Source of the DNA: Clostridia bacterium
GTDB taxonomy: Bacteria > Bacillota > Clostridia > Oscillospirales > CAG-382
DNA length: 64,000 nt
Direction: 5' to 3'
Assembly (NCBI GenBank): GCA_017560085.1
Contig: JAFYPA010000025.1
Location: forward strand, 1,619-65,618
Both the position numbers and the translations under genes were made by a program. The notes under the pieces are model-generated. The model was not told the DNA's origin. It was given only the letters and a program-made list of their open reading frames with translations, and searched no databases. Shown here one piece after another: positions 6,320 to 45,201 of this stretch. The first letter of the stretch is position 1. Every line of letters begins with the position of its first letter.

Positions 6320-6506
6320 AATAAGGTAATAGGGAATGGGGGATGGAAATTCGGAATTTGGAATTGAGTTGAAAATTTTTCCGTTGTAGAAATTTTTATT
6401 ATTTAAAATTAGTGCGGAGGGATTTTAGGATGCGGGTAAAGCCGATATGTCAAAGTTTTGGTCTCGCTTTTTCAAAAGCGAATCGCCGAAGGCCTCCCGT
6501 AAAAAA
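6320..6506. repeat. Composite intergenic repeat: degenerate heptamers + GAAAATTTTTC module + 32-bp module shared with 45704
   Basis: GAAATTCGGAATTT and TGAAAATTTTTC..AAATTTTTATTATTTAAAATT match the reverse complement of 38180-38252; 6450-6481 is identical to 45704-45735. Confidence 0.75.
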
Positions 6507-32577: not shown

Positions 32578-35500
32578 ATGAAGCTCGGAAAACTGCTCTC
32601 GATTCTGTTATGTGCGTACGCCGTAATGACTCTTGCGGTAATGTCGGTATCCGCCGACAGCACCTTCGGTGTAAACGTAAAGCTTGACGGCTCACAGTTT
32701 GTAAGCGCCTACGGTGTCGCAAAGTCTCACGACGGACTTGTAACCTTAAAGACGGCTACCCTCACGGACGGCTATCAGTATGACGATGTAACAAGGGTTG
32801 TGAAAATCGTTCCAAATAAATCCTACACGGGTACAAATCCCATAGGCATAAAGCACACCTCGGTTGCGTCCATGCAGTACACTCTCAAGGACATAAAGTA
32901 TGTAAGATACTACTACTATTACACGGGCGACTACAGCGGAAGAGCAAAGCTTGTTCTCCCCGCCTCCGAGTTCAACCTCACAAAGGACTGTGTTGTTTAC
33001 TCGATGGAAACCCTTGAAAAAAACAGATGGACTTATCTTACCTTCAATATCGAGGACGTAATCTACGGATACGTCTACACGGGCGGCTCTCTTGCGAATA
33101 TGCAGTTCTATCCCTTCGGAGACACAAAGCCATCGGCGCTTTCCTCGGATGAGCTTCTTCTGCGCGAAATCTATCTCTGGGGTAAGGACAATGTGAATAC
33201 GCTTGCGGCTCTCTCAAGCGGTACTCTCGTTCCGAGGTATCCCGTAAGCTTTGTTCCCGGCAGAAGCGATTCTGTGGGTACTGCTCCCGAAACGGTATGG
33301 GTTGAGGTCGGCGAGGAAATCATCCTTCCCGAAAACACCTTCACCCGTGAGGGCTACACCTTTGCAGGCTGGATTTGCGGAGTCGGAAGCAAGGTTATGC
33401 AGCCCGGTGACAAATATGTCGTCGAGGAAAGAAAAAGAGTTGGCGGTCCCGACACGGCAACCCTTGACTTTATCGCAAACTGGCAGCCGATCAAGGAGGA
33501 GGAGGGTGTTGCCCTTCTTCCCGCAGTAAACAGAGTAGGCTATACGGCGTTCTGCGGAGGCATTGTTGACGGCAGAAAGTACGGCTCTCTTACAAGACCT
33601 GTTATGTTTGACGGTCTTGAAACGGTAAAGTTCACATACGACGAAAACGGCAAGGATGTATCCAAGTACCAGGTTTCCTTTGACGGCTGGACGTGGAACA
33701 CGCTTCCTCTCGACCTTGCCCACTACAAGTGTCTTATCATCCCCTACTACTACAAGACAAGCGGAACAAAGAGCTTCATTCCGCTTATGAATATGCTCGG
33801 CGGCTCGGACAGAGCCCTTTCAAAGAGCTACACCGTTTCAAGCAGTACGGGAAATCTCAAGAGAAACCAGTGGGCGGTTATGGCGTTCACCTTCGATTAC
33901 GAAACAAACGCGGGACTCAACAAGCTGATTCAGTGGGACTACTCCACGGTTGTAAACCAGATTCACTTCTGGATGTTCGGAAACGGAAAGGCATCAAGCC
34001 TTGTTCCCGGTGACGAGCTTTACCTCGGTGACTTCGTGTTCCTCAACTACGTTCCCGAAAAGCTTTCCACGCTTACCTTCTCAAAGGGCTTTCTTACGGG
34101 CGACGAGGACGGATATGCCCGTCCCCTTGACGAGCTTACAAACGCTGAGGCGGCTTCCATTCTCGCAAAGTCCAACGGCTTTACCGTCGGAAGCGAGGCA
34201 TCCTATACAGCCACAACCTACACCGATGTAAAATCCGGCGACTGGTTCCTTCCCTATGTTTCCTATCTTGAAAGCAAGGGGATTCTTCCCGGTAAAGGAA
34301 AATTCAACCCCAATGCAAAGTGTCCCTTTGACGACTATGTCGAATGGACTGTAAAGGCATCGGCGGGCGGTGCGGCATCCGACGGAGATTTCGGAAAGCT
34401 TCCCGTATCCGAATCTGCCGCCGGCATCACAAGAGCAAGCGCCGTAAACCTTGCGCTCAATATTATGAAGGGCGTCAGCTACAACACAAGCGATGCACAG
34501 AAGATAATCGGTGACGAGGCTCTTTATCCCGATGTATCAAAGAATCAGTGGTTCTATCCCGACATTGTATTCTCATCCCTTCCCACGCTCAGCTATACGG
34601 TGAACGGTGACTCCAAGGTTGTTGATGTATATTACAACAAGCCCGTCAAGGAGGAGGACTTCCCGCAGGATAAGCTGGATGAGGGCTCAAAATATGTTGC
34701 GGAGCTTGACAGGCTTACAATCGACAGAATAAACGAAATCCTTCTCTCGGATTCTCAATATACGCAGAAGAAGGGCGGACGCACACACTATGTTTCAAGC
34801 TCTGGCGGCAGCGGTACTACCGGAAGCTCAAGCGAGGACAATCCCATTTACGTAAAGACTCTCAACGAGGCATCCTCTATTCCCCTTGCCCCCGGTGATG
34901 TTGTGCTCTTCAAGAGAGGAGATGTATTCAGAGGTAATCTCACAGCTCAGGCGGGCGTTACCTACTCCGCATACGGAAGCGGTGACAAGCCCAAGCTCAT
35001 AACCTCTCCCGAGAATGCTTCGGGCAAGGACAAATGGGAGCTTTACTATTCGGATGAAACAGGCAAGAAAATCTGGAAATTCAAGAACGGCGAGCTTCCC
35101 GATATAGGTGCAATCAACCTTATTTCGGACGGTGGAGAGCACCTTATAGCATACAAGGAGATTCCCTCCTACTACGCGAACACCTTCTGGGTGCGCGGCA
35201 AGGTTGAAATGGAGGAGTACGATGTTATAACACAGCTCGACAACGACTACGAATTCGTTCATCTCGCACAGTATCAGCCGGGCTCTGATTACGAAAAGCT
35301 TTCACTTTCGGGCGGTGTTCCCGCAAACAATGCGGTAGGTCCCATCTATCTCAGATGTGACGACGGCAATCCCGGTACGCTTTATCCCAGAATCGAGTTC
35401 AACGGTGACTACCATACAATCAGATGCAACGGTGACAGCATTACAATCGACAATCTCTGTCTTCTCTACTTCGGCAGACACGGTGTTTCCGCAGGTACAA

Positions 35501-36276
35501 ACCACAATCTTACCGTAAGAAACTGTGAAATCGGCTGGGGCGGTGGCTCTGTTCAGTCCTATAATACATCCTCCGGCTCTGCCACAAGATTCGGTAACGG
35601 TGTCGAAATCTACGGCGCACTTACCAACTACACCATTGACAACTGTTATGTATACGAAATCTACGATGCAGGTATCACACATCAGATTTCGGGCACATCC
35701 TCCGGTAACTACTATATGGAGGGCGTATACTACACAAACAACGTTCTTGTCAACTCCACCTACAACATCGAATACTTTATGTCCATGAACACCGTAAAGG
35801 ATTCCGCAACGGGCACGGTACCGCTTCAGGAGCGTTATATGAAGAATGTATACTTCACGGACAACATAGTAAGAAAAGCGGGCTACGGCTGGGGTGTACA
35901 GCGTCCCGACAGTGCTCCCTCCAATATCAAGGGCTGGACACATCACAATCTTTCCGATAACTACATCATAGAAGGAAACATCTTCGACAGATGTCTTGAC
36001 CTTCAGAACTTCCGTACCGACTACAATGTTATGCTCGGTACGACATACGAGTCCTCCACGCCTTATATGAAGAACAACATCTTCGTTCAGACGCCCGGCA
36101 GAATTCTTATGACCTTCCACAAGACAAGCTATATGACAGACCTCAATTCCGAGGAGCTTCTCACAAAGCTTGCAGGCCCCGGCAACAAGGTATACTTCTA
36201 CCCCGACGACGAAAAGGAATACTGGGGCAATGTCCACTGGAGAGATCTTGAGGCTATAAGAGAAAACAAGAAATAA
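32578..36276 (+). CDS. SLH-containing right-handed beta-helix protein (paralog 2, divergent SLH region)
   Basis: Signal peptide, B-repeat, degenerate SLH (DVKSGDWF, ITRASAV), FKRGD, RFGNGVEIYG, YDAGITHQ. Confidence 0.85.
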   Translation: MKLGKLLSILLCAYAVMTLAVMSVSADSTFGVNVKLDGSQFVSAYGVAKSHDGLVTLKTATLTDGYQYDDVTRVVKIVPNKSYTGTNPIGIKHTSVASMQYTLKDIKYVRYYYYYTGDYSGRAKLVLPASEFNLTKDCVVYSMETLEKNRWTYLTFNIEDVIYGYVYTGGSLANMQFYPFGDTKPSALSSDELLLREIYLWGKDNVNTLAALSSGTLVPRYPVSFVPGRSDSVGTAPETVWVEVGEEIILPENTFTREGYTFAGWICGVGSKVMQPGDKYVVEERKRVGGPDTATLDFIANWQPIKEEEGVALLPAVNRVGYTAFCGGIVDGRKYGSLTRPVMFDGLETVKFTYDENGKDVSKYQVSFDGWTWNTLPLDLAHYKCLIIPYYYKTSGTKSFIPLMNMLGGSDRALSKSYTVSSSTGNLKRNQWAVMAFTFDYETNAGLNKLIQWDYSTVVNQIHFWMFGNGKASSLVPGDELYLGDFVFLNYVPEKLSTLTFSKGFLTGDEDGYARPLDELTNAEAASILAKSNGFTVGSEASYTATTYTDVKSGDWFLPYVSYLESKGILPGKGKFNPNAKCPFDDYVEWTVKASAGGAASDGDFGKLPVSESAAGITRASAVNLALNIMKGVSYNTSDAQKIIGDEALYPDVSKNQWFYPDIVFSSLPTLSYTVNGDSKVVDVYYNKPVKEEDFPQDKLDEGSKYVAELDRLTIDRINEILLSDSQYTQKKGGRTHYVSSSGGSGTTGSSSEDNPIYVKTLNEASSIPLAPGDVVLFKRGDVFRGNLTAQAGVTYSAYGSGDKPKLITSPENASGKDKWELYYSDETGKKIWKFKNGELPDIGAINLISDGGEHLIAYKEIPSYYANTFWVRGKVEMEEYDVITQLDNDYEFVHLAQYQPGSDYEKLSLSGGVPANNAVGPIYLRCDDGNPGTLYPRIEFNGDYHTIRCNGDSITIDNLCLLYFGRHGVSAGTNHNLTVRNCEIGWGGGSVQSYNTSSGSATRFGNGVEIYGALTNYTIDNCYVYEIYDAGITHQISGTSSGNYYMEGVYYTNNVLVNSTYNIEYFMSMNTVKDSATGTVPLQERYMKNVYFTDNIVRKAGYGWGVQRPDSAPSNIKGWTHHNLSDNYIIEGNIFDRCLDLQNFRTDYNVMLGTTYESSTPYMKNNIFVQTPGRILMTFHKTSYMTDLNSEELLTKLAGPGNKVYFYPDDEKEYWGNVHWRDLEAIRENKK

Positions 36277-36310: not shown

Positions 36311-37402
36311 TTGATTAAACTCGTACACATATCCGACCTTCATCTCGACACCCCCTTTGCGGGGTGCGACCTTGCCGAAAGAAGTGCAAGACGGAGCGAG
36401 CTCCGTGACGGACTTTCCGCGGTATGCAGATACTGCAAGGAAAACTCGGTACAGCTTCTTCTCATAGCGGGCGACCTTTTCGAGAGCGACTACACAAGCC
36501 GTGAGACCGCACGGTTCGTTGCGGAGTGTCTCGGCACGATTCCCGAAACCCGTGTATTTATTTCGCCCGGGAACCACGACCCGTACAACGGCGCATCGCC
36601 CTACAGATACTGTCAGTTCCCCGACAATGTACACATATTCAGCGGTGAGTCCCTTGAGTCGGTGGAAATTCCCGAGCTTCACACGGCTGTTTACGGCTAC
36701 GCCTTCACGGGCGAGAGTATGACGGAAAACCCCGTGCACGGAATTCATCCCTTTGACACGGACAGAATCAACATTCTTGTAGCCCACGGAGATTACGATG
36801 TTCCCCGTTCTCCCTATTACAGCATAAGTCATTCGGACATATGCGAAAGCGGACTTGACTATGTGGCGCTCGGTCACATTCACAAGCCCTCGGGAATAAT
36901 GAATGCGGGCGGAACTGTCTGGGCATACAGCGGATGTCTTATCGGCAGAGATTTCGGTGAATGCGGTGAGCGAGGAATGATTGCGGGCACGATTTCCAAG
37001 GAAAGCGGTGCAAATCTCAGCTATATTCCCGTAACGAAAGCGAGCTTTGAGGAGCTTCGTATAGATACGAATGACAAGTCCATTGACGAGGCAATTGAGG
37101 AAGCAAGGCGTCTTCGCTCGGAGCTTGCCTCTGAGTGCAGGGTAAGGATAACTCTTTGCGGAACGGACAGGGCAAGGCTTGACATAATCCGTCAGAATCT
37201 TCTTTCCGATGCGACTATGGGCTTTTGCGAGGTTCTTGAGGAAATTTCCGAATCTGCGGTATTTGAGGAAATTGCGGATGAATTCTCCATGCGTGGAGAA
37301 TTTGCGAGGAGGCTTCGTCCGTACATTGAGTCCGAGGATGAGAGTGTAAGGGAAACTGCGGAAATGGCGTTGAGGCTTGGACTTGAGGCGTTGAAGAAGT
37401 AG
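36311..37402 (+). CDS. Mre11/SbcD-like DNA repair exonuclease (YhaO-type metallophosphoesterase)
   Basis: HISDLHL, AGDLF, PGNHD, AHG, YVALGHIH. Confidence 0.9.
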   Translation: MIKLVHISDLHLDTPFAGCDLAERSARRSELRDGLSAVCRYCKENSVQLLLIAGDLFESDYTSRETARFVAECLGTIPETRVFISPGNHDPYNGASPYRYCQFPDNVHIFSGESLESVEIPELHTAVYGYAFTGESMTENPVHGIHPFDTDRINILVAHGDYDVPRSPYYSISHSDICESGLDYVALGHIHKPSGIMNAGGTVWAYSGCLIGRDFGECGERGMIAGTISKESGANLSYIPVTKASFEELRIDTNDKSIDEAIEEARRLRSELASECRVRITLCGTDRARLDIIRQNLLSDATMGFCEVLEEISESAVFEEIADEFSMRGEFARRLRPYIESEDESVRETAEMALRLGLEALKK

Positions 37403-37451
37403 GCAATAAAATGTTATTCGGGGAGCAGGCTGTCAGGGTTTGCTCCTTTGA

Positions 37452-38327
37452 AAATAGGTAATAGTGAAGAGTGAAGAGTGAATAAGTAAGGTGAAAATTT
37501 TTCGGGGGAAAAATTTTTATTTATTTTAAATTGGTACAGTGCGAATTACATTCGTTGCGATTCCTATTACTTGGCACAAAGAAGGAGAGTTTTCGAAATA
37601 TACAATTAGGCTAAAACAGGCAATGAAAGGATATATTCCGACAACTTAATTACATAATGGAGGGTTTTTTATGCATGCTATAGATGAGTTGATAAAAATG
37701 CTATATGCAGTTAATCCACAAGAAATCCAGAATGAAGGTATTCGGCTTGCGCGTGAAGTGGAGCATATTGCGGTTTTTATTCTACCACCGGACAGTGGGG
37801 CTTGGGAAAACTGCGCTAAAATTCTCGCAGAACGAGATGATAAAACACTAAAACCTTATTTAATAGATATTTTTGAATGGTTGATGGATATGACTTATCC
37901 AGGGGCTTTCATTATATATGACAGATTATTAAGGTATGAAAAGAATCAACATTTTTTTTGGTGTGTGGAAATGTGTACAAAATATGCAAAGGTGATAAAC
38001 GAGTATCCTTGGTATCACAATATGATCTCATTAATTGGCGGTAAAGATGAGTGGGATAAATTATAGTTGATTGTTTGGTTAATTATCCGACCCGAACGCA
38101 GAAATTCATAAAGTTCTGTTTTTGGTAAAATTCCGATGTGGTAGCCGTAAGTTTTGTTGAATTTCCGTGCAGAATAACAAATTCGCACAGCAACAATTTT
38201 AAATAATAAAAATTTTTCTTACAGAAAAATTTTCACCTAAATTCCGAATTTCAAGATTGCGAAGCAATCCCATTATGCATTATGCATTATGCATTATGCA
38301 TTGGAAAGAATCCTTCGGATTCTTTCC
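37452..38327. mobile_element. Putative non-autonomous element with 59-bp inverted repeats and heptamer-repeat flanks, carrying a cargo gene
   Basis: IRs 37489-37547 / 38180-38238 (first 15 bp identical); (GTGAAGA)n on the left, (CATTATG)4 on the right; AT-rich interior. Confidence 0.6.
37671..38066 (+). CDS. DUF5071-like protein, AT-rich and probably foreign
   Basis: WENCAKIL..LKPYL..IFEWLMDMTYPGA..I..RL; SD GGAGG; TTA/CTA/CCA codons that are uncommon in the highly biased neighbouring genes. Confidence 0.7.
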   Translation: MHAIDELIKMLYAVNPQEIQNEGIRLAREVEHIAVFILPPDSGAWENCAKILAERDDKTLKPYLIDIFEWLMDMTYPGAFIIYDRLLRYEKNQHFFWCVEMCTKYAKVINEYPWYHNMISLIGGKDEWDKL

Positions 38328-38352
38328 CTCCCATCCCGAAAGGTGGTATAAT

Positions 38353-40887
38353 ATGTCAGAAACAAAATCATATACAGTCAGCGGAATGACCTGTGCCGCT
38401 TGCAGTGCGAGAGTGGAGAAGGCGGCTCTGGGCGTTGACGGAGTTGAAAGCTGTGCCGTGAATCTTCTTACGGGGAGTATGACGGTTACGGGCGAAATGA
38501 CCGACATAGCTGTGATTTCTGCCGTGGAAAAGGCGGGATACGGATGTATTTGCGCTGACGGTGGTTCTCGCAGAGAGACAGGGAAAAGTGATAGCGGTAA
38601 TGCTTATGAAAAGGAATCACGGGTGCTGATTTCACGGCTTTTGTCCTCGCTTGGGTTCCTTGCGGTGCTGATGTACTTCTCTATGGGACATAATATGCTC
38701 GGACTTCCGCTTCCTTCCTTCTTTGACGGCAATCCCATTGCCGTGGGACTTGTGCAGATGCTATGCGCTCTTGCGGTTATGATTATCGGCGGAAGATTCT
38801 TTGTCAGCGGTGCAAAATCGGTTTTGAGGCTTTCTCCCAATATGGACGCCCTTGTGGCAATCGGATCGGGGGCGGCGTTTGTGTACAGTACTGCGGTGCT
38901 GTTTGTTATGAGCGACTACGCCTTTAAGGGCGAGATTGCTATGGCAAGCCATCAGCTCCATAACCTCTACTTCGAGTCTGCGGCTATGATTCTTGCACTT
39001 GTTACAGTCGGAAAAGCACTCGAGGCACGCTCAAAGGCTAAAACGGGCGACGCGCTCCGAGGACTTCAAAGCCTTATGCCTGAAACGGCTACCGTTATCC
39101 GTGACGGAGTTGAGGTTAAAATCCCCGTTGCCGAGCTCGTTCCGGGGGATGTCTTCATTGTAAGACCGGGCGAGCAGATTTCCACAGACGGCTTTATCAT
39201 TGAGGGTCATACCGCCGTCAACGAATCGGCTGTCACCGGCGAGAGCGTGCCTGCGGAAAAAAGCGTCGGCGATACCGTCACCGGTGCTACAGTCAATACC
39301 TCGGGCTTTATAAAATGCCGTGCAACAAGAGTCGGTAACGATACCGTGCTTTCAAAAATAATAGAAACCGTCAGCGATGCTAACGCAACTAAAGCTCCAA
39401 TTGCAAAGACTGCAGATAAGGTCGCTTCCGTGTTTGTTCCTGCGGTTATGGGCGTGGCGCTTGTTACCGCAATCGTGTGGCCAGTACTCGGTCAAAGCTT
39501 CGGATTTGCTCTTGCAAGAGCGGTTTCCGTGCTTGTTATAAGCTGTCCCTGCTCGCTGGGACTTGCAACTCCCGTTGCCATTATGGTGGGAAGCGGTGTC
39601 GGTGCGAAAAACGGCATCCTCTTCAAGAGTGCGGAAATGCTCGAAATCTGCGGAAGAGTCAATACCGTGGTGCTTGACAAAACAGGCACCGTCACAAGCG
39701 GAAGCCTTGCGGTAAACGGCGTTTATCCCGAAAAGGGAGTTTCCTCGGACGAGCTTCTTTCTGTCGCTCTCACCCTTGAGGAGAAAAGCGAGCATCCGCT
39801 TGCAAGGGCGGTTGTTGATTTCTGCAATTCCAAGGGAATCAAAAGTAAAAGCTGCGACGACTTCTGCGCAGACGTCGGAAGCGGTGTCCGCTGTGTGATA
39901 GAAACCAAGCCCTGCTTCGGCGGTAAAATAGGCTATCTCGAGGAAAAGGGCATAAATATTCCCGCGGGAGCAAAGGAAAAGGCGGACAGCCTTTCCGAAA
40001 AGGGCAGTACACCTCTGTTTTTCGCCTGTGGCGGAAAATATCTCGGAATCATCTCCGCCGCGGATACCATAAAGCCCGACAGTAAATTCGCAGGAGAAGC
40101 CTTCAGAAAAATGGGCATCGAAACGGTGCTTCTCTCCGGTGACAACGCCCTTGTGACAAGGGCAATCGCCGAAAAGGCGGGCATAGAAAGGGCAATTTCC
40201 AACGCAACTCCCTCGGAGAAGGCGGATAGGATTACCGAGCTTCGCAAAAACGGTAAGGTCGCAATGGTCGGTGACGGAATCAACGATGCCCCCGCACTTG
40301 CATCTGCGGATGTGGGTATGGCAATCGGTACGGGAACGGACGTTGCCAGAGATACGGCGGGCGTTATTCTTATGAACGGAAGCCTTGTTTCCGCAGTTAA
40401 CGGCATTAAGCTTTCCCGCGCGGTGCTTCGCAATATAAAGCAGAATCTGTTCTGGGCGTTTTTCTATAACTGCATAGGCATTCCCGTGGCGGCAGGCGCG
40501 CTCTCGCCCGTCGGAATTACACTGAGTCCCATGATAGGTGCTCTGGCTATGGGTCTTTCAAGTGTATTTGTGGTTTCAAATGCGTTAAGGCTTAACTCGT
40601 TCAGAGCGGAAAAGGCGGAAATTGCCGAAAACACCGAAAAACGGACAACAGAAATAATTATTGAAGAATCCACGGAGGAAAACACAATGGAAAAAGTATT
40701 TGAAGTAAAGGGCATGATGTGCCACCACTGCGAAAATCACGTAAAGAAGGCACTTGAGGCAATCGACGGCGTTACCGAGGCAATTGCAAGTCACACAGAG
40801 GGCAAGGTTACGGTTAAGCTTTCGGGAGACGTTGCGGATGAGGTGATTAAGTCTGCAATAGTTGAAGAAGGATATGAGGTTGGATAA
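38353..40887 (+). CDS. copA: Copper-translocating P1B-type ATPase with N- and C-terminal HMA domains
   Basis: GMTCAAC, TGES, CPC, DKTGT, SEHPL, GDGIND, YN..GIP, C-terminal GMMCHHC; start moved to ATG 38353. Confidence 0.93.
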   Translation: MSETKSYTVSGMTCAACSARVEKAALGVDGVESCAVNLLTGSMTVTGEMTDIAVISAVEKAGYGCICADGGSRRETGKSDSGNAYEKESRVLISRLLSSLGFLAVLMYFSMGHNMLGLPLPSFFDGNPIAVGLVQMLCALAVMIIGGRFFVSGAKSVLRLSPNMDALVAIGSGAAFVYSTAVLFVMSDYAFKGEIAMASHQLHNLYFESAAMILALVTVGKALEARSKAKTGDALRGLQSLMPETATVIRDGVEVKIPVAELVPGDVFIVRPGEQISTDGFIIEGHTAVNESAVTGESVPAEKSVGDTVTGATVNTSGFIKCRATRVGNDTVLSKIIETVSDANATKAPIAKTADKVASVFVPAVMGVALVTAIVWPVLGQSFGFALARAVSVLVISCPCSLGLATPVAIMVGSGVGAKNGILFKSAEMLEICGRVNTVVLDKTGTVTSGSLAVNGVYPEKGVSSDELLSVALTLEEKSEHPLARAVVDFCNSKGIKSKSCDDFCADVGSGVRCVIETKPCFGGKIGYLEEKGINIPAGAKEKADSLSEKGSTPLFFACGGKYLGIISAADTIKPDSKFAGEAFRKMGIETVLLSGDNALVTRAIAEKAGIERAISNATPSEKADRITELRKNGKVAMVGDGINDAPALASADVGMAIGTGTDVARDTAGVILMNGSLVSAVNGIKLSRAVLRNIKQNLFWAFFYNCIGIPVAAGALSPVGITLSPMIGALAMGLSSVFVVSNALRLNSFRAEKAEIAENTEKRTTEIIIEESTEENTMEKVFEVKGMMCHHCENHVKKALEAIDGVTEAIASHTEGKVTVKLSGDVADEVIKSAIVEEGYEVG

Positions 40888-40961
40888 TGGATAATGCATA
40901 ATGCATAATGCATAATGCATAATCAAGACTGCTTCGCAGTCTTAGGTGAAGATTTTTCGGG
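40882..40961 (+). repeat. Half element: (AATGCAT)n + AAGACTGC-TTC-GCAGTCTT hairpin + AGGTGAAGATTTTTC
   Basis: 40914-40943 is identical to 15362-15391 (30 nt); the heptamer run overlaps the copA stop codon. Confidence 0.85.
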
Positions 40962-41115
40962 GAGCTCGGTGTGGGCTTCCCGATTTTGCTTATTAAAAAA
41001 GTACATTTTTGATAAAATATATTAAAATATGATACTTTTTACTATTTACTTTTGACAAAATATAGTGTATAATAAAATTGTCTTAATATATTTCTATAAA
41101 GAAAGGAAGAAAAAC

Positions 41116-44100
41116 ATGAAAAAGACAGCAAAGCTTTTGAGCGTGATTCTTGCCGTTATTATGATGACAACCATGATTCCGGTAACTATGCTCAATTCTA
41201 TGGCAGCTCCCACATCCTCGACCGTTGTTTACATTATGGCAGACGGCTCGGGTAACGGTACTGCTCCCGATAAGCCTACAACTCTTGTTAAGGCTATCAC
41301 AACTCTCGATGCCGCAGGTGGCGGTACAATAGTACTTGTAGGACCTACAAATCTTACAAGCAACATTCTTCTCGGTAACAACTCCCCCGACATCACAATC
41401 AAGGTTACATCCGTGTACGGTGGCGTTGACTACAGAGAAACAGCAAATGCGGCTCTCGTATTTACAAAGGACTGGATTAACGTATCCTCCAAAAATGTAT
41501 TTGAATACGAGAACATAAATTTCCTTATGCAGGGTGCAAACTGCTCCTTCTTCGGTAACGGCTTCCCGCTTACCTTCGGTAAGGGTGTTAAGGTTATTAT
41601 CGCAGAGGGCCGCGATGCCAAGGATGTAAAGAACTATCCCAACATCTATGGTGGCTCCGCACACGACCTTTCAGGTACAACAAACTTCCCCGCACATACA
41701 TCCATCACCGTTCTTTCCGGTACATTCAGAAGTGTATATCCCAGCGGCTTCGGTACTGAGGCAAAGCCCAGACCTTCTCTCTCCGCAACACTTGCTATCT
41801 CCTCCAAGGTTAAGATTATGCACGCCCTCGGATATGAGTACAACGCTCCTCACTCCAAGATTGAAGGCGATGTTACTCTTATCACAATCGACGGCAGGCA
41901 CGAAGCTCTCAAGCACGATACCGAAAAGAAGGTTGTTGAGGTTTCAGGCGGTAACGGTCACGTTTCCGGTATCGCGCCCGGCAAGGTAATGATCTGTGCC
42001 GACACAGGCTATGCCGCAAAGATTGGCGACAAGGTTGTTCCCAACGGCGCTTACGAGTTCGATGGTGCTGAGCTCAAGGTTACATTCGTTGAGTCCGACA
42101 TCAACAGGGAAGCAGAGCTTGCTCTCACACGCCCCACACTTCCCGCCGCAATTCCCGGAGAATACATCAAGGGCTATGACAACGGCGACGGAACATTCTC
42201 CTTCAAGCCCTCGGGCAACATCACGATTGCAGAGGCTTCCACAATCCTTGTCCGTCTTATGACAACAGAGGACGCAATCAAGGGTCAGTACACAACAGAT
42301 AAGGCAAAGGAAAGCGACTGGTTCTACAACAACATCGCATACCTCGATGCTTACGGCTCCTTCGACACATTCGACAACTTTGACGGCAACCGTCAGATTA
42401 CAAGAGCGGAATTCGTAAAGCTTGTTTCTCTCTACAGAAAGATACTTGCAAAGACTACGGAAGAAATCAAGTTCACCGACGTTTCTGCAGACTACAAGTA
42501 TGCAGACTGCATCAAGACCGCTACAATGGGTAAGATTGTAAACGGCTACGACAACGGTGACGGCACATTCTCCTTCAAGCCCGACGCTCCCATCACAAGA
42601 GCAGAGGTTGTAACGGTTATCAACAGAATCTTTGATATGGCTGACCTTGCTCCCATCAAGTACAAGGACAAGCTTCCCAACTTCTCCGACGTTGACATTA
42701 CTCACTGGGCAGCATACCAGATTATTGCTGCGGCAGGCGGTAAGGATAAGCCCGCTGAAAAGCAGGAAATCACAGGTACAGGTGAGGTTGAGCACACAGT
42801 TGCAGGTAATGTTGTATTCGTTAAGGACGGTGGCGAGGGCGACGGCTCCTCCGCTGAAAAGGCAACAACCTGGAACAAGGGTGTGGGACTTATCAAGGAA
42901 AGCGGTACAGTAGTTGTCTGCGGTCCTGTTGAGTTCAACTCCAACTTCAGATTCTCCGGCGGTCATACCGGCACACAGATTATCACATCCGTTTACGACG
43001 GTGTTGACTACAGAGCAACAGCAGATGCGGCTATCATCTTCGGCTCCAACTGGAGAAATGGTGTTCCCGCAGGTACAACAATTTTCGATAACATCGCATT
43101 TATTTCAAAAGGTTCAAACTGCTCCATCTACTGCGACAACCAGAACGTAACCTTCGGTAAGGACGTTGTATGTGTAATTGAAAGCGGTGCTCCCATCGCT
43201 CTCTACGGTGGCTCTGCAAACGACCTGAGCGCTTGTGTAAACTACATTGATTCTACAAGCACAGCAGTTGCACACACCGGCAATTACTTTGCAAACCTCA
43301 CAATTAACGGCGGTACATGGGGTAACATCTCCGGTACAGGTAACGGCAGTGAAGCAAAGCCCAGAGAAAACAACGGCTCTGCAATCACAATTTCCGGCGA
43401 AGTAATCGCAGGCTCTATTACCTGCGGTAACAGCACAACTATGGGTAAAAGAGTAAACGGTCTTCGTACACTCGTACTCAACAACTACGGCGCTGCTACA
43501 ATCGATCCCGTTCACTATGACATCATTGTAAGCGTTAAGGCTGAGGCTGAAGCTAAGGTTGTAGGCATGACAAAGGAAAGCGTTACTATCCTTGTTACAG
43601 CCAACGACGGCTCCAAGGTTCAGGGCGTTAACGACGACGGCACAATCACATTCGAGGGTGAAGGCTCTCTTATCGTTACAGGCACAGGCAACGCAATCAC
43701 AGCCGTAAAGGGTGGCAAGACTGCAATTGACGGCGTTGTTGACGAAAACGTTGAGTTTGTAACAGACGAATATCTCAAGGAGCTTGATGCTCGTCAGGCA
43801 CAGAGAAAGGCAGAAATTCTCGCAACAGTTTCCACAATCAAGCCCAAGGAAGGCAAGAAGGCATACTATGTTTCCTCCTCCGCAGGTAACGACGAAAACG
43901 ACGGTCTTTCCGCTGACAAGCCCTTCAAGACAATCACAAAGGTAAATGCGGCAAATCTCGTACCGGGCGACGTTGTTTACTTCAAGCGCGGCGACGAATG
44001 GAGAGGTACAACTCTTAAGGCAAAGAACGGCGTATCCTACACAGCATACGGCGAAGGCGCAAAGCCCGTAATCAGCCTTTCTCCCTTCGACGGTGCAAAG

Positions 44101-45201
44101 CACGGTACATGGACACCCGTTGAGGGCTATACCAATGTATACAAGTACAGCGAGCTCTTTACAGAGGACATCGGATCTCTCGCATTCAACGAAAGAACAT
44201 TTACAGAAATCTATGCACAGAAGATACTCTTCGACTTTATCGGCAAGGATCCCGCAAAGCCTCACTTCAGAGGCGATCCCGCAGACAAGATTGCAGAGGA
44301 TCAGCTTTCCTACCTCAAGAACGACCTTGACTTCTGGCACGATACAAAGGGTCCCAACATCACATATGCAAAGGGCGGCGAGCTTTATCTCCGTTCCGAC
44401 AAGGGCAACCCCGCTGAAAGATTTACAAACATCGAATTCAACCCCAGAGCAAGCTGTATTACGGTAGGTAATGCTGTTGACGTAACAATCGACAACCTTA
44501 CAATCCGTCACGCAGGTGTTCACGGTGTTTCCTCCTCCACAACAAGAAACCTCACAGTTACAAACTGTGTATTCGAATGGATCGGCGGCGGTGTACAGAA
44601 CTACAACGACGGCTCTTACGTAAGACTTGGTAACGCAGTAGAAATCTACGGCGGATGCGAGGGCTACATTGTTGACAACTGCTACATCGAGCAGGTTTAC
44701 GATGCAGGTGTTACACATCAGGTTTCTCACGAATCCGACGGTGACTATGTTATGAAGGATGTAACATACTCCAACAATGTAATTCTCAACTGTATCTACT
44801 CCATCGAGCACTTCAACAGAGCTCGTGCGAACACAACAAGATATCTTGTAAACATCAACTACAAGAACAATCTCTGCAGATATGCGGGCTACTGCTTCGG
44901 TAACACAAGACCCGACAAGACAGTTGCGTCCCACATTCGTTCCGGTACTATTGTTGACACAGCGAACTTCGTTGTAGAAAACAATGTATTCGACAGATCC
45001 ACGGTACAGCTCTTCAAGCTTCAGGCAGGCGGTGACGAGCAGATTCAGTGGAAGAACAATGTATACATCCACAGACTCGGTGCTTCCTACGGTACAATGA
45101 CAGGTGTAAGCATTACTTACAACGGCAACATTTCCAAGGAAGTTGAAAGATACTTTGCATTCCCCGAGGTTAACGGAAAGTATCTCTTTATTAAGGAATA
45201 A
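41116..45201 (+). CDS. SLH-anchored right-handed beta-helix protein (paralog 3, different accessory modules)
   Basis: Two modules with TSVY(G/D)GVDYR..A.AA..F, SLH repeats, YYVSS..GNDENDG, RLGNAVEIYG, YDAGVTHQ. Confidence 0.88.
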   Translation: MKKTAKLLSVILAVIMMTTMIPVTMLNSMAAPTSSTVVYIMADGSGNGTAPDKPTTLVKAITTLDAAGGGTIVLVGPTNLTSNILLGNNSPDITIKVTSVYGGVDYRETANAALVFTKDWINVSSKNVFEYENINFLMQGANCSFFGNGFPLTFGKGVKVIIAEGRDAKDVKNYPNIYGGSAHDLSGTTNFPAHTSITVLSGTFRSVYPSGFGTEAKPRPSLSATLAISSKVKIMHALGYEYNAPHSKIEGDVTLITIDGRHEALKHDTEKKVVEVSGGNGHVSGIAPGKVMICADTGYAAKIGDKVVPNGAYEFDGAELKVTFVESDINREAELALTRPTLPAAIPGEYIKGYDNGDGTFSFKPSGNITIAEASTILVRLMTTEDAIKGQYTTDKAKESDWFYNNIAYLDAYGSFDTFDNFDGNRQITRAEFVKLVSLYRKILAKTTEEIKFTDVSADYKYADCIKTATMGKIVNGYDNGDGTFSFKPDAPITRAEVVTVINRIFDMADLAPIKYKDKLPNFSDVDITHWAAYQIIAAAGGKDKPAEKQEITGTGEVEHTVAGNVVFVKDGGEGDGSSAEKATTWNKGVGLIKESGTVVVCGPVEFNSNFRFSGGHTGTQIITSVYDGVDYRATADAAIIFGSNWRNGVPAGTTIFDNIAFISKGSNCSIYCDNQNVTFGKDVVCVIESGAPIALYGGSANDLSACVNYIDSTSTAVAHTGNYFANLTINGGTWGNISGTGNGSEAKPRENNGSAITISGEVIAGSITCGNSTTMGKRVNGLRTLVLNNYGAATIDPVHYDIIVSVKAEAEAKVVGMTKESVTILVTANDGSKVQGVNDDGTITFEGEGSLIVTGTGNAITAVKGGKTAIDGVVDENVEFVTDEYLKELDARQAQRKAEILATVSTIKPKEGKKAYYVSSSAGNDENDGLSADKPFKTITKVNAANLVPGDVVYFKRGDEWRGTTLKAKNGVSYTAYGEGAKPVISLSPFDGAKHGTWTPVEGYTNVYKYSELFTEDIGSLAFNERTFTEIYAQKILFDFIGKDPAKPHFRGDPADKIAEDQLSYLKNDLDFWHDTKGPNITYAKGGELYLRSDKGNPAERFTNIEFNPRASCITVGNAVDVTIDNLTIRHAGVHGVSSSTTRNLTVTNCVFEWIGGGVQNYNDGSYVRLGNAVEIYGGCEGYIVDNCYIEQVYDAGVTHQVSHESDGDYVMKDVTYSNNVILNCIYSIEHFNRARANTTRYLVNINYKNNLCRYAGYCFGNTRPDKTVASHIRSGTIVDTANFVVENNVFDRSTVQLFKLQAGGDEQIQWKNNVYIHRLGASYGTMTGVSITYNGNISKEVERYFAFPEVNGKYLFIKE

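Follow-up and report, generated by a model that had tools for sequence, protein, structure and literature searches.

Layout of the spacer between the sbcD-like gene and copA

We analysed a stretch of 64,000 nucleotides (nt) from a Clostridia bacterium, referred to here as the window (positions 1619-65618 of contig C10 in the source genome, G000, which is 91% complete), and concentrated on a small gene, the cargo, that lies in the spacer between an SbcD-like phosphoesterase gene and a CopA-type heavy-metal ATPase gene. The cargo is enclosed by two opposed copies of a short hairpin repeat, the arms, and an initial annotation of the bare sequence had proposed that these repeat ends can capture and move arbitrary DNA without an encoded recombinase. 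The results set out below favour a different explanation, in which the cargo is probably an acquired, intact and possibly immunity-like orphan gene of the DUF5071 family, lying in a repeat-rich spacer that holds two independent, opposed copies of the hairpin repeat. The spacer from the sbcD-like gene to the copA-type gene is 950 nt long, and its features and flanking genes are as follows.

36311..37402, + strand: SbcD-like calcineurin-type phosphoesterase gene, the left neighbour (Pfam Metallophos, E=1.8e-13)
37422..37449, + strand: terminator-like GC hairpin, GGAGCA..TGCTCC then TTT, 3' of the sbcD-like gene (read from the sequence)
37463..37483, + strand: heptamer run AGTGAAG AGTGAAG AGTGAAT outside the left arm (3 copies, at most 1 mismatch)
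37484..37547, + strand: left arm, a hairpin-repeat copy, GGTGAAAATTTTTC-loop-GAAAAATTTTTATTTATT..AAATTGG..GTGCGAATT, oriented left to right (inverted repeat; predicted hairpin of -11.6 kcal/mol)
37530..37649, + strand: open stretch of 39 codons plus stop, beginning inside the left arm (listing of open reading frames, ORFs)
37549..37568, + strand: fragment of a second repeat, core TTGCGATTCCT, abutting the left arm (exact match over 20 nt to C25:5104-5123, opposite strand)
37659..37663, + strand: ribosome-binding site (RBS) GGAGG, 7 nt 5' of the cargo ATG (read from the sequence)
37671..38066, + strand: cargo, an intact DUF5071-family gene of 131 amino acids (aa), assigned from Pfam, homology and AlphaFold2
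38067..38179, unstranded: unique, AT-rich 3' spacer of 113 nt from the cargo stop to the right arm (similarity searches)
38180..38243, - strand: right arm, the second hairpin-repeat copy, oriented right to left (inverted repeat; predicted hairpin of -10.7 kcal/mol)
38255..38269, unstranded: small palindrome GATTGCGAAGCAATC between the right arm and the right heptamers (read from the sequence)
38271..38298, + strand: heptamer run, 4x CATTATG, outside the right arm (repeat finder and sequence; AATGCAT class)
38303..38327, + strand: hairpin GGAAAGAATCC-TTC-GGATTCTTTCC in the copA leader, followed by the copA RBS (read from the sequence)
38353..40887, + strand: CopA-type heavy-metal P-type ATPase gene, the right neighbour (Pfam E1-E2_ATPase 8e-58, HMA 6.8e-29, Hydrolase 6.6e-25)

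Most of what the initial annotation described at this locus is borne out: the arms that it placed at 37489-37547 and 38180-38238 lie inside the inverted repeat found here, heptamer runs stand outside both of them, and the AT-rich gene between them has its own Shine-Dalgarno sequence. A leader of 123 nt separates the left arm from the cargo ATG, and GC content is 0.31-0.40 across 37500-38300 vs about 0.49-0.58 in the flanking genes. The 3' spacer had no significant DNA or protein similarity in any frame within G000 and the fetched loci, and Rfam gave nothing for the arms or spacers, the sole row being a chance rliD match (E=0.33). A consensus scan for promoters and terminators returned sites that were no more numerous than in shuffled sequences and did not call the hairpin at 37422-37449. 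The 3' half of this hairpin, CTCCTTTGAAAATAGGTAAT, recurs beside other repeat copies (those on C86 and C120 were compared), where the RBS of a gene lies within its reverse complement, as at the copy on C86. The GATTGCGAAGCAATC palindrome is likewise a shared module, which also adjoins the copies on C78, C16 and C8:25349.

A hairpin repeat family in the source genome

The arms belong to a dispersed family. A BLAST search with the left arm found 37 loci in G000 and an oriented pattern search found 38 copies of a unit of about 60 nt, with a stem that is almost pure A/T. The exact core pattern, GAAAATTTTTC-N3-7-AAAAATTTTTAT, had 32 matches in G000 (none for the reversed control) and none in 40 relatives, 6 of which are congeners. 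These counts indicate that the hairpin repeat is amplified in this species alone among the genomes searched. The central hairpin is predicted to fold in 37 of the 38 copies, with 9-16 pairs and energies of -3.0 to -15.2 kcal/mol; the loops vary among copies, and a C-G pair extends some of the stems. On a crude ORF map, from which the placement and orientation of copies relative to genes were taken, all 38 copies sit between ORFs, and they have no orientation bias, since the heptamer side faces the start of a gene 19 times and the end 18 times, and for the tail side the counts are 16 starts and 14 ends. At least two tandem heptamers occur within 70 nt on the 5' side in 31 of the 38 copies. All but two of the copies (36/38) are solo, including the one that the initial annotation had seen at 6370 and that we find at 6367-6400 of the window (C10:7985-8018).

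The heptamers form a repeat class in their own right: there are 146 exact tandem runs of at least 3 copies in G000, 95 of them of the AATGCAT class, and the corresponding numbers for periods of 5, 6, 8 and 9 nt are 0, 5, 0 and 2. Runs within the window include those at 37463-37483, 38271-38298 and about 40890-40920. Matches to the CATTATG run also occur in related genera, e.g. in G001, G014, G016 and G020. The second repeat, represented at the locus by the fragment fused to the left arm, has an 11-nt core, TTGCGATTCCT, that occurs 38 times in G000, nearly always within one conserved mosaic element spanning roughly 120-340 nt (20 of the 38 cores are too near contig ends for full flanks of 300 nt before and 900 nt after). 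In this second, mosaic family a core, AATTGCGATTATTGCGATTCCTGC, is followed by variable hairpin modules such as CCCCTCATCAGTCAGCTTCGCTGACAGC (examples are C92:3660-3780, C10:66120-66265 and C25:5040-5130); at several loci the second mosaic repeat lies within about 60 nt after a hairpin core. The species is documented with its own amplified hairpin repeat, a second mosaic family and an abundance of heptamer runs, and these have reshaped regulatory spacers, the one before copA among them.

Comparison of the two arms with each other and with the family

If the arms were the ends of one unit, their mutual similarity would be the property to examine. The repeat finder gave them as 64 nt long, 78% complementary and 632 nt apart, and when aligned as family members they are 81% identical over 62-63 nt. 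The partner ranks only 16th of 37 for the left arm and 17th of 37 for the right arm, i.e. each has 15-16 closer relatives elsewhere. The closest copy to the left arm is C125:16544 (0.87), and the closest to the right arm are C25:4957 and C123:49201 (both 0.87), the C123 copy also having its loop and the ATTATTTAAAATTG stretch in common with the right arm. The similarity of the arms stops at the limit of the family consensus. Outside it the flanks belong to different heptamer classes, with AGTGAAG on one side and AATTCCGAA.. then CATTATG on the other, and neither the sequence nor the repeat finder revealed a target duplication or direct repeat directly outside the arm ends. Chance matching does not explain the inverted repeat, which arises from two members of the 38-copy family and not from a structure specific to the pair.

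The arms are the sole pair less than 7 kb apart among the 38 copies, and no other gene in the genome is bracketed by two cores. We estimated how often such a pair would arise by dropping 38 copies at random into the intergenic DNA of the crude ORF map: of 20000 trials, 59% produced a pair within 800 nt and 19% one that also faced inward. Given the mutual ranks of 16-17 of 37, the differing flanks, the lack of any other pair within 7 kb and the frequency of inward-facing pairs under random placement, the arms look like independent solo copies, which is the outcome that the initial annotation had named as telling against its proposal. No second copy of the arm-cargo-arm unit is present in G000, where the cargo is single-copy. 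At 39 other loci with DUF5071 homologues no comparable flanking inverted repeat was found (0/39, with the locus in the window as positive control); 4 of the 39 had matches, of 14-19 nt only.

We also looked beyond this locus for an association between the repeats and genes of foreign appearance, using GC content at third codon positions (GC3) as the measure. Only 2 of the 66 ORF entries adjoining hairpin cores had a GC3 of 0.35 or below, and both entries are the cargo itself. Similarly, an exact heptamer run lies within 400 nt of 1 of 35 low-GC3 ORFs (again the cargo) vs 156 of 1996 other ORFs. In general, the repeats are not associated with foreign genes. Together with the ranks of the arms, the absence of a target duplication and the absence of a second unit, this speaks against the proposal that the repeat ends capture and move DNA. 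The case also provides a worked example of a simple control: before mobility is claimed for a gene between inverted repeats, it should be tested whether the arms resemble each other more than they resemble the other members of their family.

The open stretch upstream of the cargo

The initial annotation had read a short open frame ending in a stop at 37647-37649 as the 3' tip of an upstream gene. The frame exists, as the open stretch 37530-37649, and its interpretation as a gene tip does not hold up. Its 5' part is repeat DNA, with 37549-37568 belonging to the TTGCGATTCCT family. It had no significant match in G000 or the 48 fetched loci, and when 400 genomes of the order were searched in six frames, the lowest E-value for any genome was 0.023, which is chance level. 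When the 364 nt of non-ORF DNA between the outer ends of the arms was shuffled, 89% of 2000 shuffles contained an open stretch of at least 39 codons. Because its start is derived from a repeat, it has no homologue and its length is expected by chance, we conclude that the open stretch is not a gene remnant. The same comparison shows that the unique DNA on the left side starts at about 37570, after the fused second-repeat fragment and not where the arm ends; transposition by the arms would not be expected to leave such a junction.

The cargo protein

Assignment of the cargo to DUF5071, already suggested by the initial annotation, is supported by several searches. Pfam DUF5071 (PF16804) matched the protein over residues 49-91 only, at 21.1 bits (E=4.1e-4), a score below the gathering score of the family. 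In the species genomes we found relatives at 35 loci (L014-L048), mostly in Clostridia metagenome-assembled genomes, with 27-46% identity to the cargo; one of these copies (L044) has no ORF of at least 100 aa and was left out of the Pfam scan, and all 34 of the relatives scanned passed the DUF5071 gathering score. A profile built from the cargo and 2 relatives had 755 matches at E<=1e-3 among 1.84 billion representatives, and the nearest ESM Atlas clusters of the cargo are DUF5071, at 0.97. The cargo has the conserved residues W45, A49 and G78. By its homology to true DUF5071 proteins it is clearly a divergent member of this family, despite the Pfam score. A word-based search found only two close relatives, with 85% (P0002, encoded on a public contig of 5.5 kb) and 43% identity, and a metagenome scan returned only a relative with 47%. 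The cargo protein had no match in the plasmid and phage collections and no family in NCBIfam, PADLOC or PHROGs.

AlphaFold2, run with 59 sequences, modelled the cargo with nine helices at a mean predicted local distance difference test score (pLDDT) of 96.2, and the cargo is accordingly predicted to be an all-alpha helical-repeat protein. Foldseek returned nothing for this model at E<=0.001; its weak matches were designed armadillo or helical-repeat proteins and Cthe_2751 of Clostridium thermocellum (PDB 3UT4). Cthe_2751 shares with the cargo model its small size (about 130 aa) and all-alpha structure; it is matched by the family profile of the cargo at E=1.1e-4, and the model superposes on it with a template modelling (TM) score of 0.47-0.48. 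The two differ in that the sequence match spans only 32 residues and the Foldseek E-value is 0.11. For Cthe_2751 (PDB 3UT4, 3UT7, 3UT8), PMC3282739 gives no established function and reports only a very low match to a splicing endonuclease.

Many of the relatives (among P0004-P0035) have two or three tandem DUF5071-like domains, in proteins of 250-410 aa. At three loci (L016, L027 and L035) a DUF6560 membrane protein is encoded just upstream of the cargo relative.

Composition, distribution and origin of the cargo

The cargo differs in composition from its surroundings, with a GC content of 0.36 vs 0.52 in the flanks and a GC3 of 0.31 vs 0.56 in the sbcD-like gene and 0.52 in copA. This GC3 lies within the lowest 1.06% of the 2257 ORFs of at least 100 aa in G000. 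The distribution of the gene is patchy: no relative of the cargo turned up in the 6 congeners, and of 150 other genomes in the family only 3 had one. The foreign look that the initial annotation attributed to the gene is therefore confirmed by its composition and by the congeners, in which it was not found, and the cargo is most likely a horizontally acquired accessory gene.

The sbcD-like gene and copA are on different contigs in 4 of the 6 congeners (G001, G002, G004 and G006), G005 matched copA only and G003 matched neither; in G002 a different gene lies upstream of copA. When positions 38244-38352 of the window were compared with L002:100-290 and L004:1300-1480, the copA promoter-operator region kept in congeners (TAGAATTATTAA.., GTTAG..CTAAC) was missing from G000, so the spacer in G000 has been rebuilt. 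The upstream region with an AT-rich promoter-like stretch and the inverted repeat GTTAG-N6-CTAAC is common to G001, G002, G006 and, in part, G004; in G000 repeat modules reach right up to the copA RBS.

Two public sequencing runs of other studies (X3 and X5) contain contigs that match the cargo over 261, 193 and 173 nt, with 1, 1 and 0 differences respectively. These cargo contigs are more than 99% identical, and flank contigs from the two runs differ from the window by about 2-4%, a contrast that is a hint only, as the metagenome contigs are short. The contig from X3 matches 37888-38148 (the 1 difference in 261 nt) and is then unlike the window for 126 nt, so that the break falls inside the arm-bounded unit. 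Runs X2 and X4 cover the flanks with no cover over the cargo, which is not evidence of its absence.

Elsewhere in G000, C127:23481-26589 (L060) contains six same-strand small ORFs of 103-236 aa, with a GC3 of 0.21-0.34 and no Pfam match; this array looks like a foreign island of small genes.

Neighbourhoods of the relatives and a possible immunity-like role

We scanned the neighbourhoods of the 35 relative loci, taking + strand ORFs of at least 100 aa only. ORFs with RHS_repeat or PT-HINT domains lie within about 3.5 kb of the relative at 7 of these loci (L014, L015, L017, L019, L028, L041 and L044), and runs of small same-strand ORFs often accompany them. By analogy with these loci, the cargo most likely encodes a small binding protein built of helical repeats, such as occur in immunity clusters beside Rhs or PT-HINT polymorphic toxins. 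The suggestion of the initial annotation that it resembles an orphan immunity module fares accordingly: these neighbourhoods make an orphan immunity-like role plausible, and the toxin side finds no counterpart, as RHS_repeat, PT-HINT and LXG had no match in G000 (91% complete). Nor is the cargo encoded directly downstream of a toxin gene, the open stretch upstream of it being without a homologue.

The concept of orphan immunity genes in polymorphic toxin systems is described in PMC10539506 and PMC12247911. The cargo resembles such genes in being small, AT-rich, patchily distributed and without a cognate toxin gene in G000, and in having relatives in small-gene clusters beside Rhs or PT-HINT toxins. 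It differs from them in that DUF5071 has no known immunity activity, only 7 of the 35 relatives are near toxins, and the cargo locus has no array, recombinase or toxin remnant. The solitary DUF5071 gene and the Rhs or PT-HINT company of its relatives together yield a testable hypothesis, i.e. that of an immunity-like binding protein, for a family that has lacked a function.

Comparison with known repeat and transposon systems

In Proteobacteria, repetitive extragenic palindromic (REP) sequences occur in bacterial interspersed mosaic elements (BIMEs) and, as regular inverted doublets with a short spacer (REPINs), flank the gene for their REP-associated tyrosine transposase (RAYT). The hairpin repeat described here resembles these systems in consisting of short palindromic units that are present in dozens of intergenic copies in either orientation, are mosaic with other short modules and are lineage-specific. 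It differs from the REPIN-RAYT arrangement because 36 of the 38 copies are solo, with only one inverted pair, and from REPs and REPINs because its stem consists almost entirely of A/T and the unit is accompanied by heptamer runs. G000 does contain a RAYT-like homologue of Y1 (HUH) transposases, at C21:6592-6951 between ruvA and ruvB (L058; 35.8 bits, with HVHMIV and SYHDH motifs), and, unlike a RAYT gene, it has no hairpin cores within 900 nt on either side. The Y1 transposase homologues of G000 are not linked to the hairpin repeat. A stronger TnpA of the IS200/IS605 type lies at C97:61-417, and fragments lie at two contig ends.

Other known systems for comparison are miniature inverted-repeat transposable elements (MITEs) and Correia-type elements, and pairs of MITEs or composite transposons with passenger genes. 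As in a MITE pair or a composite transposon, the gene at this locus stands between inverted copies of a small non-coding repeat. In contrast to them, the locus has no target-site duplication, its arms resemble other copies as closely as they resemble each other, and there is neither a second copy of the unit nor another pair bearing a cargo. We also considered an integron cassette, which was rejected on anatomy only, with no integrase search made: the copies are dispersed singly and form no array, and the arms are inverted and not direct. An element like those of the IS200/IS605 or palindrome-associated transposable element (PATE) type was rejected because the ends of such elements are expected in direct orientation on one strand, whereas the arms are inverted.

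Origin of the arrangement

In the explanation that we consider probable, two hairpin repeats of about 60 nt from the species-specific family would have settled independently, facing each other between the sbcD-like gene and copA. The DUF5071 gene, which lies in the unique AT-rich DNA of about 0.6 kb between them, would have been acquired horizontally and inserted into this dispensable, mosaic spacer through recombination that was either illegitimate or homology-assisted. Transposition by the repeat ends was probably not involved, and the cargo would now stand alone as an 'orphan' with no cognate toxin gene beside it.

Several observations weigh against this explanation. The cargo does not reach the 27 bits of the DUF5071 gathering score, and a literature search by DUF5071 and PF16804 found no functional study of the family. 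The other 28 of the 35 relative loci are in housekeeping or unknown contexts. Homologues are often AT-richer than their hosts, e.g. L018 with 0.47 vs 0.59 and L021 with 0.44 vs 0.57, and the low GC content of the cargo is therefore a weaker sign of recent transfer than it looks. An empty site was not seen, and no public contig bridges the junction with or without the cargo (the contigs are short), so that the insertion itself is something we infer. Finally, the only gene bracketed by two cores is among the roughly 1% most AT-rich genes of G000, and no other intergenic region of the genome has two cores; independent placement does not predict this coincidence, which was noticed after the fact.

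This coincidence is what most invites an explanation in which the inverted pair is causally tied to the gene, either as a fragile REPIN-like doublet that patches in foreign single-gene fragments or as ends moved in trans by a Y1 (RAYT-like) transposase. We regard such a causal tie as unlikely overall. In the first form, which is itself quite unlikely, the cores were already paired and their palindrome broke or slipped, and repair then patched in foreign DNA, so that the repeats caused the insertion and do not move the gene. This would account for the coincidence between the sole core pair and a gene that is among the most foreign-looking, each core forms a strong predicted hairpin (-10.7 and -11.6 kcal/mol), and the left unique DNA starts past the fused second-repeat fragment, as expected for illegitimate joining. 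However, G000 has no other close inverted core doublet, an empty-site sequence is lacking and the scenario is wholly inferential. A composite capture cassette, with the hairpin copies as ends of a non-autonomous unit moved by a recombinase encoded elsewhere and the DUF5071 gene as its passenger, is highly improbable. A true inverted pair does surround a complete foreign-looking gene with its own RBS, that gene being the only one so bracketed and among the most AT-rich, the amplification of a species-specific repeat family implies mobility at some time, and Y1 (HUH) transposase homologues, including the RAYT-like gene between ruvA and ruvB on C21, are present. Yet the arms resemble each other no more than family members taken at random, their outer flanks differ with no target duplication, the unit is present once with no other arm pair in the genome, other foreign genes show no link to the repeats, core copies are lacking from the 900-nt flanks of the RAYT-like gene, and the X3 contig keeps the cargo and diverges after 38148, inside the unit. 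Moreover, the repeat was found in this species only and relatives of the gene occur in distant Clostridia without such repeats, so the unit could not have arrived ready-made.

Alternatively, the DUF5071 gene could be an old resident of the lineage that was lost in relatives and is AT-rich like its family, with repeats settling later in both spacers. Homologues elsewhere are commonly AT-richer than their flanks, the repeats occupy intergenic DNA with no orientation preference, and neighbouring copies are frequent under random placement, all of which fit such a history. It is nevertheless very unlikely, as the gene was not found in 6 of 6 congeners and in 147 of 150 other genomes of the family, the missing copA promoter-operator of the congeners shows that the spacer has been remodelled, and the GC3 gap to both neighbours is 0.21-0.25; the near-identity of the cargo contigs in the two other-study runs, beside their more divergent flank contigs, adds a hint only. 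The preferred explanation, an acquired gene between two independent repeat copies, differs from these alternatives also in what it implies. A capture mechanism would mean a new way for small repeats to mobilise genes, and causal repeats of any kind would give a gut Clostridium a recombinase-distant route for picking up orphan immunity-like genes; the evidence points instead to an ordinary acquired accessory gene.

Other features of the region

Two very large secreted proteins are encoded on either side of the region, at 32578-36276 (1232 aa) and 41065-45201 (1378 aa) of the window. Their C-terminal parts are visibly similar, e.g. ..GDVVLFKRGDVFRG.. in the former and ..GDVVYFKRGDEWRG.. in the latter.

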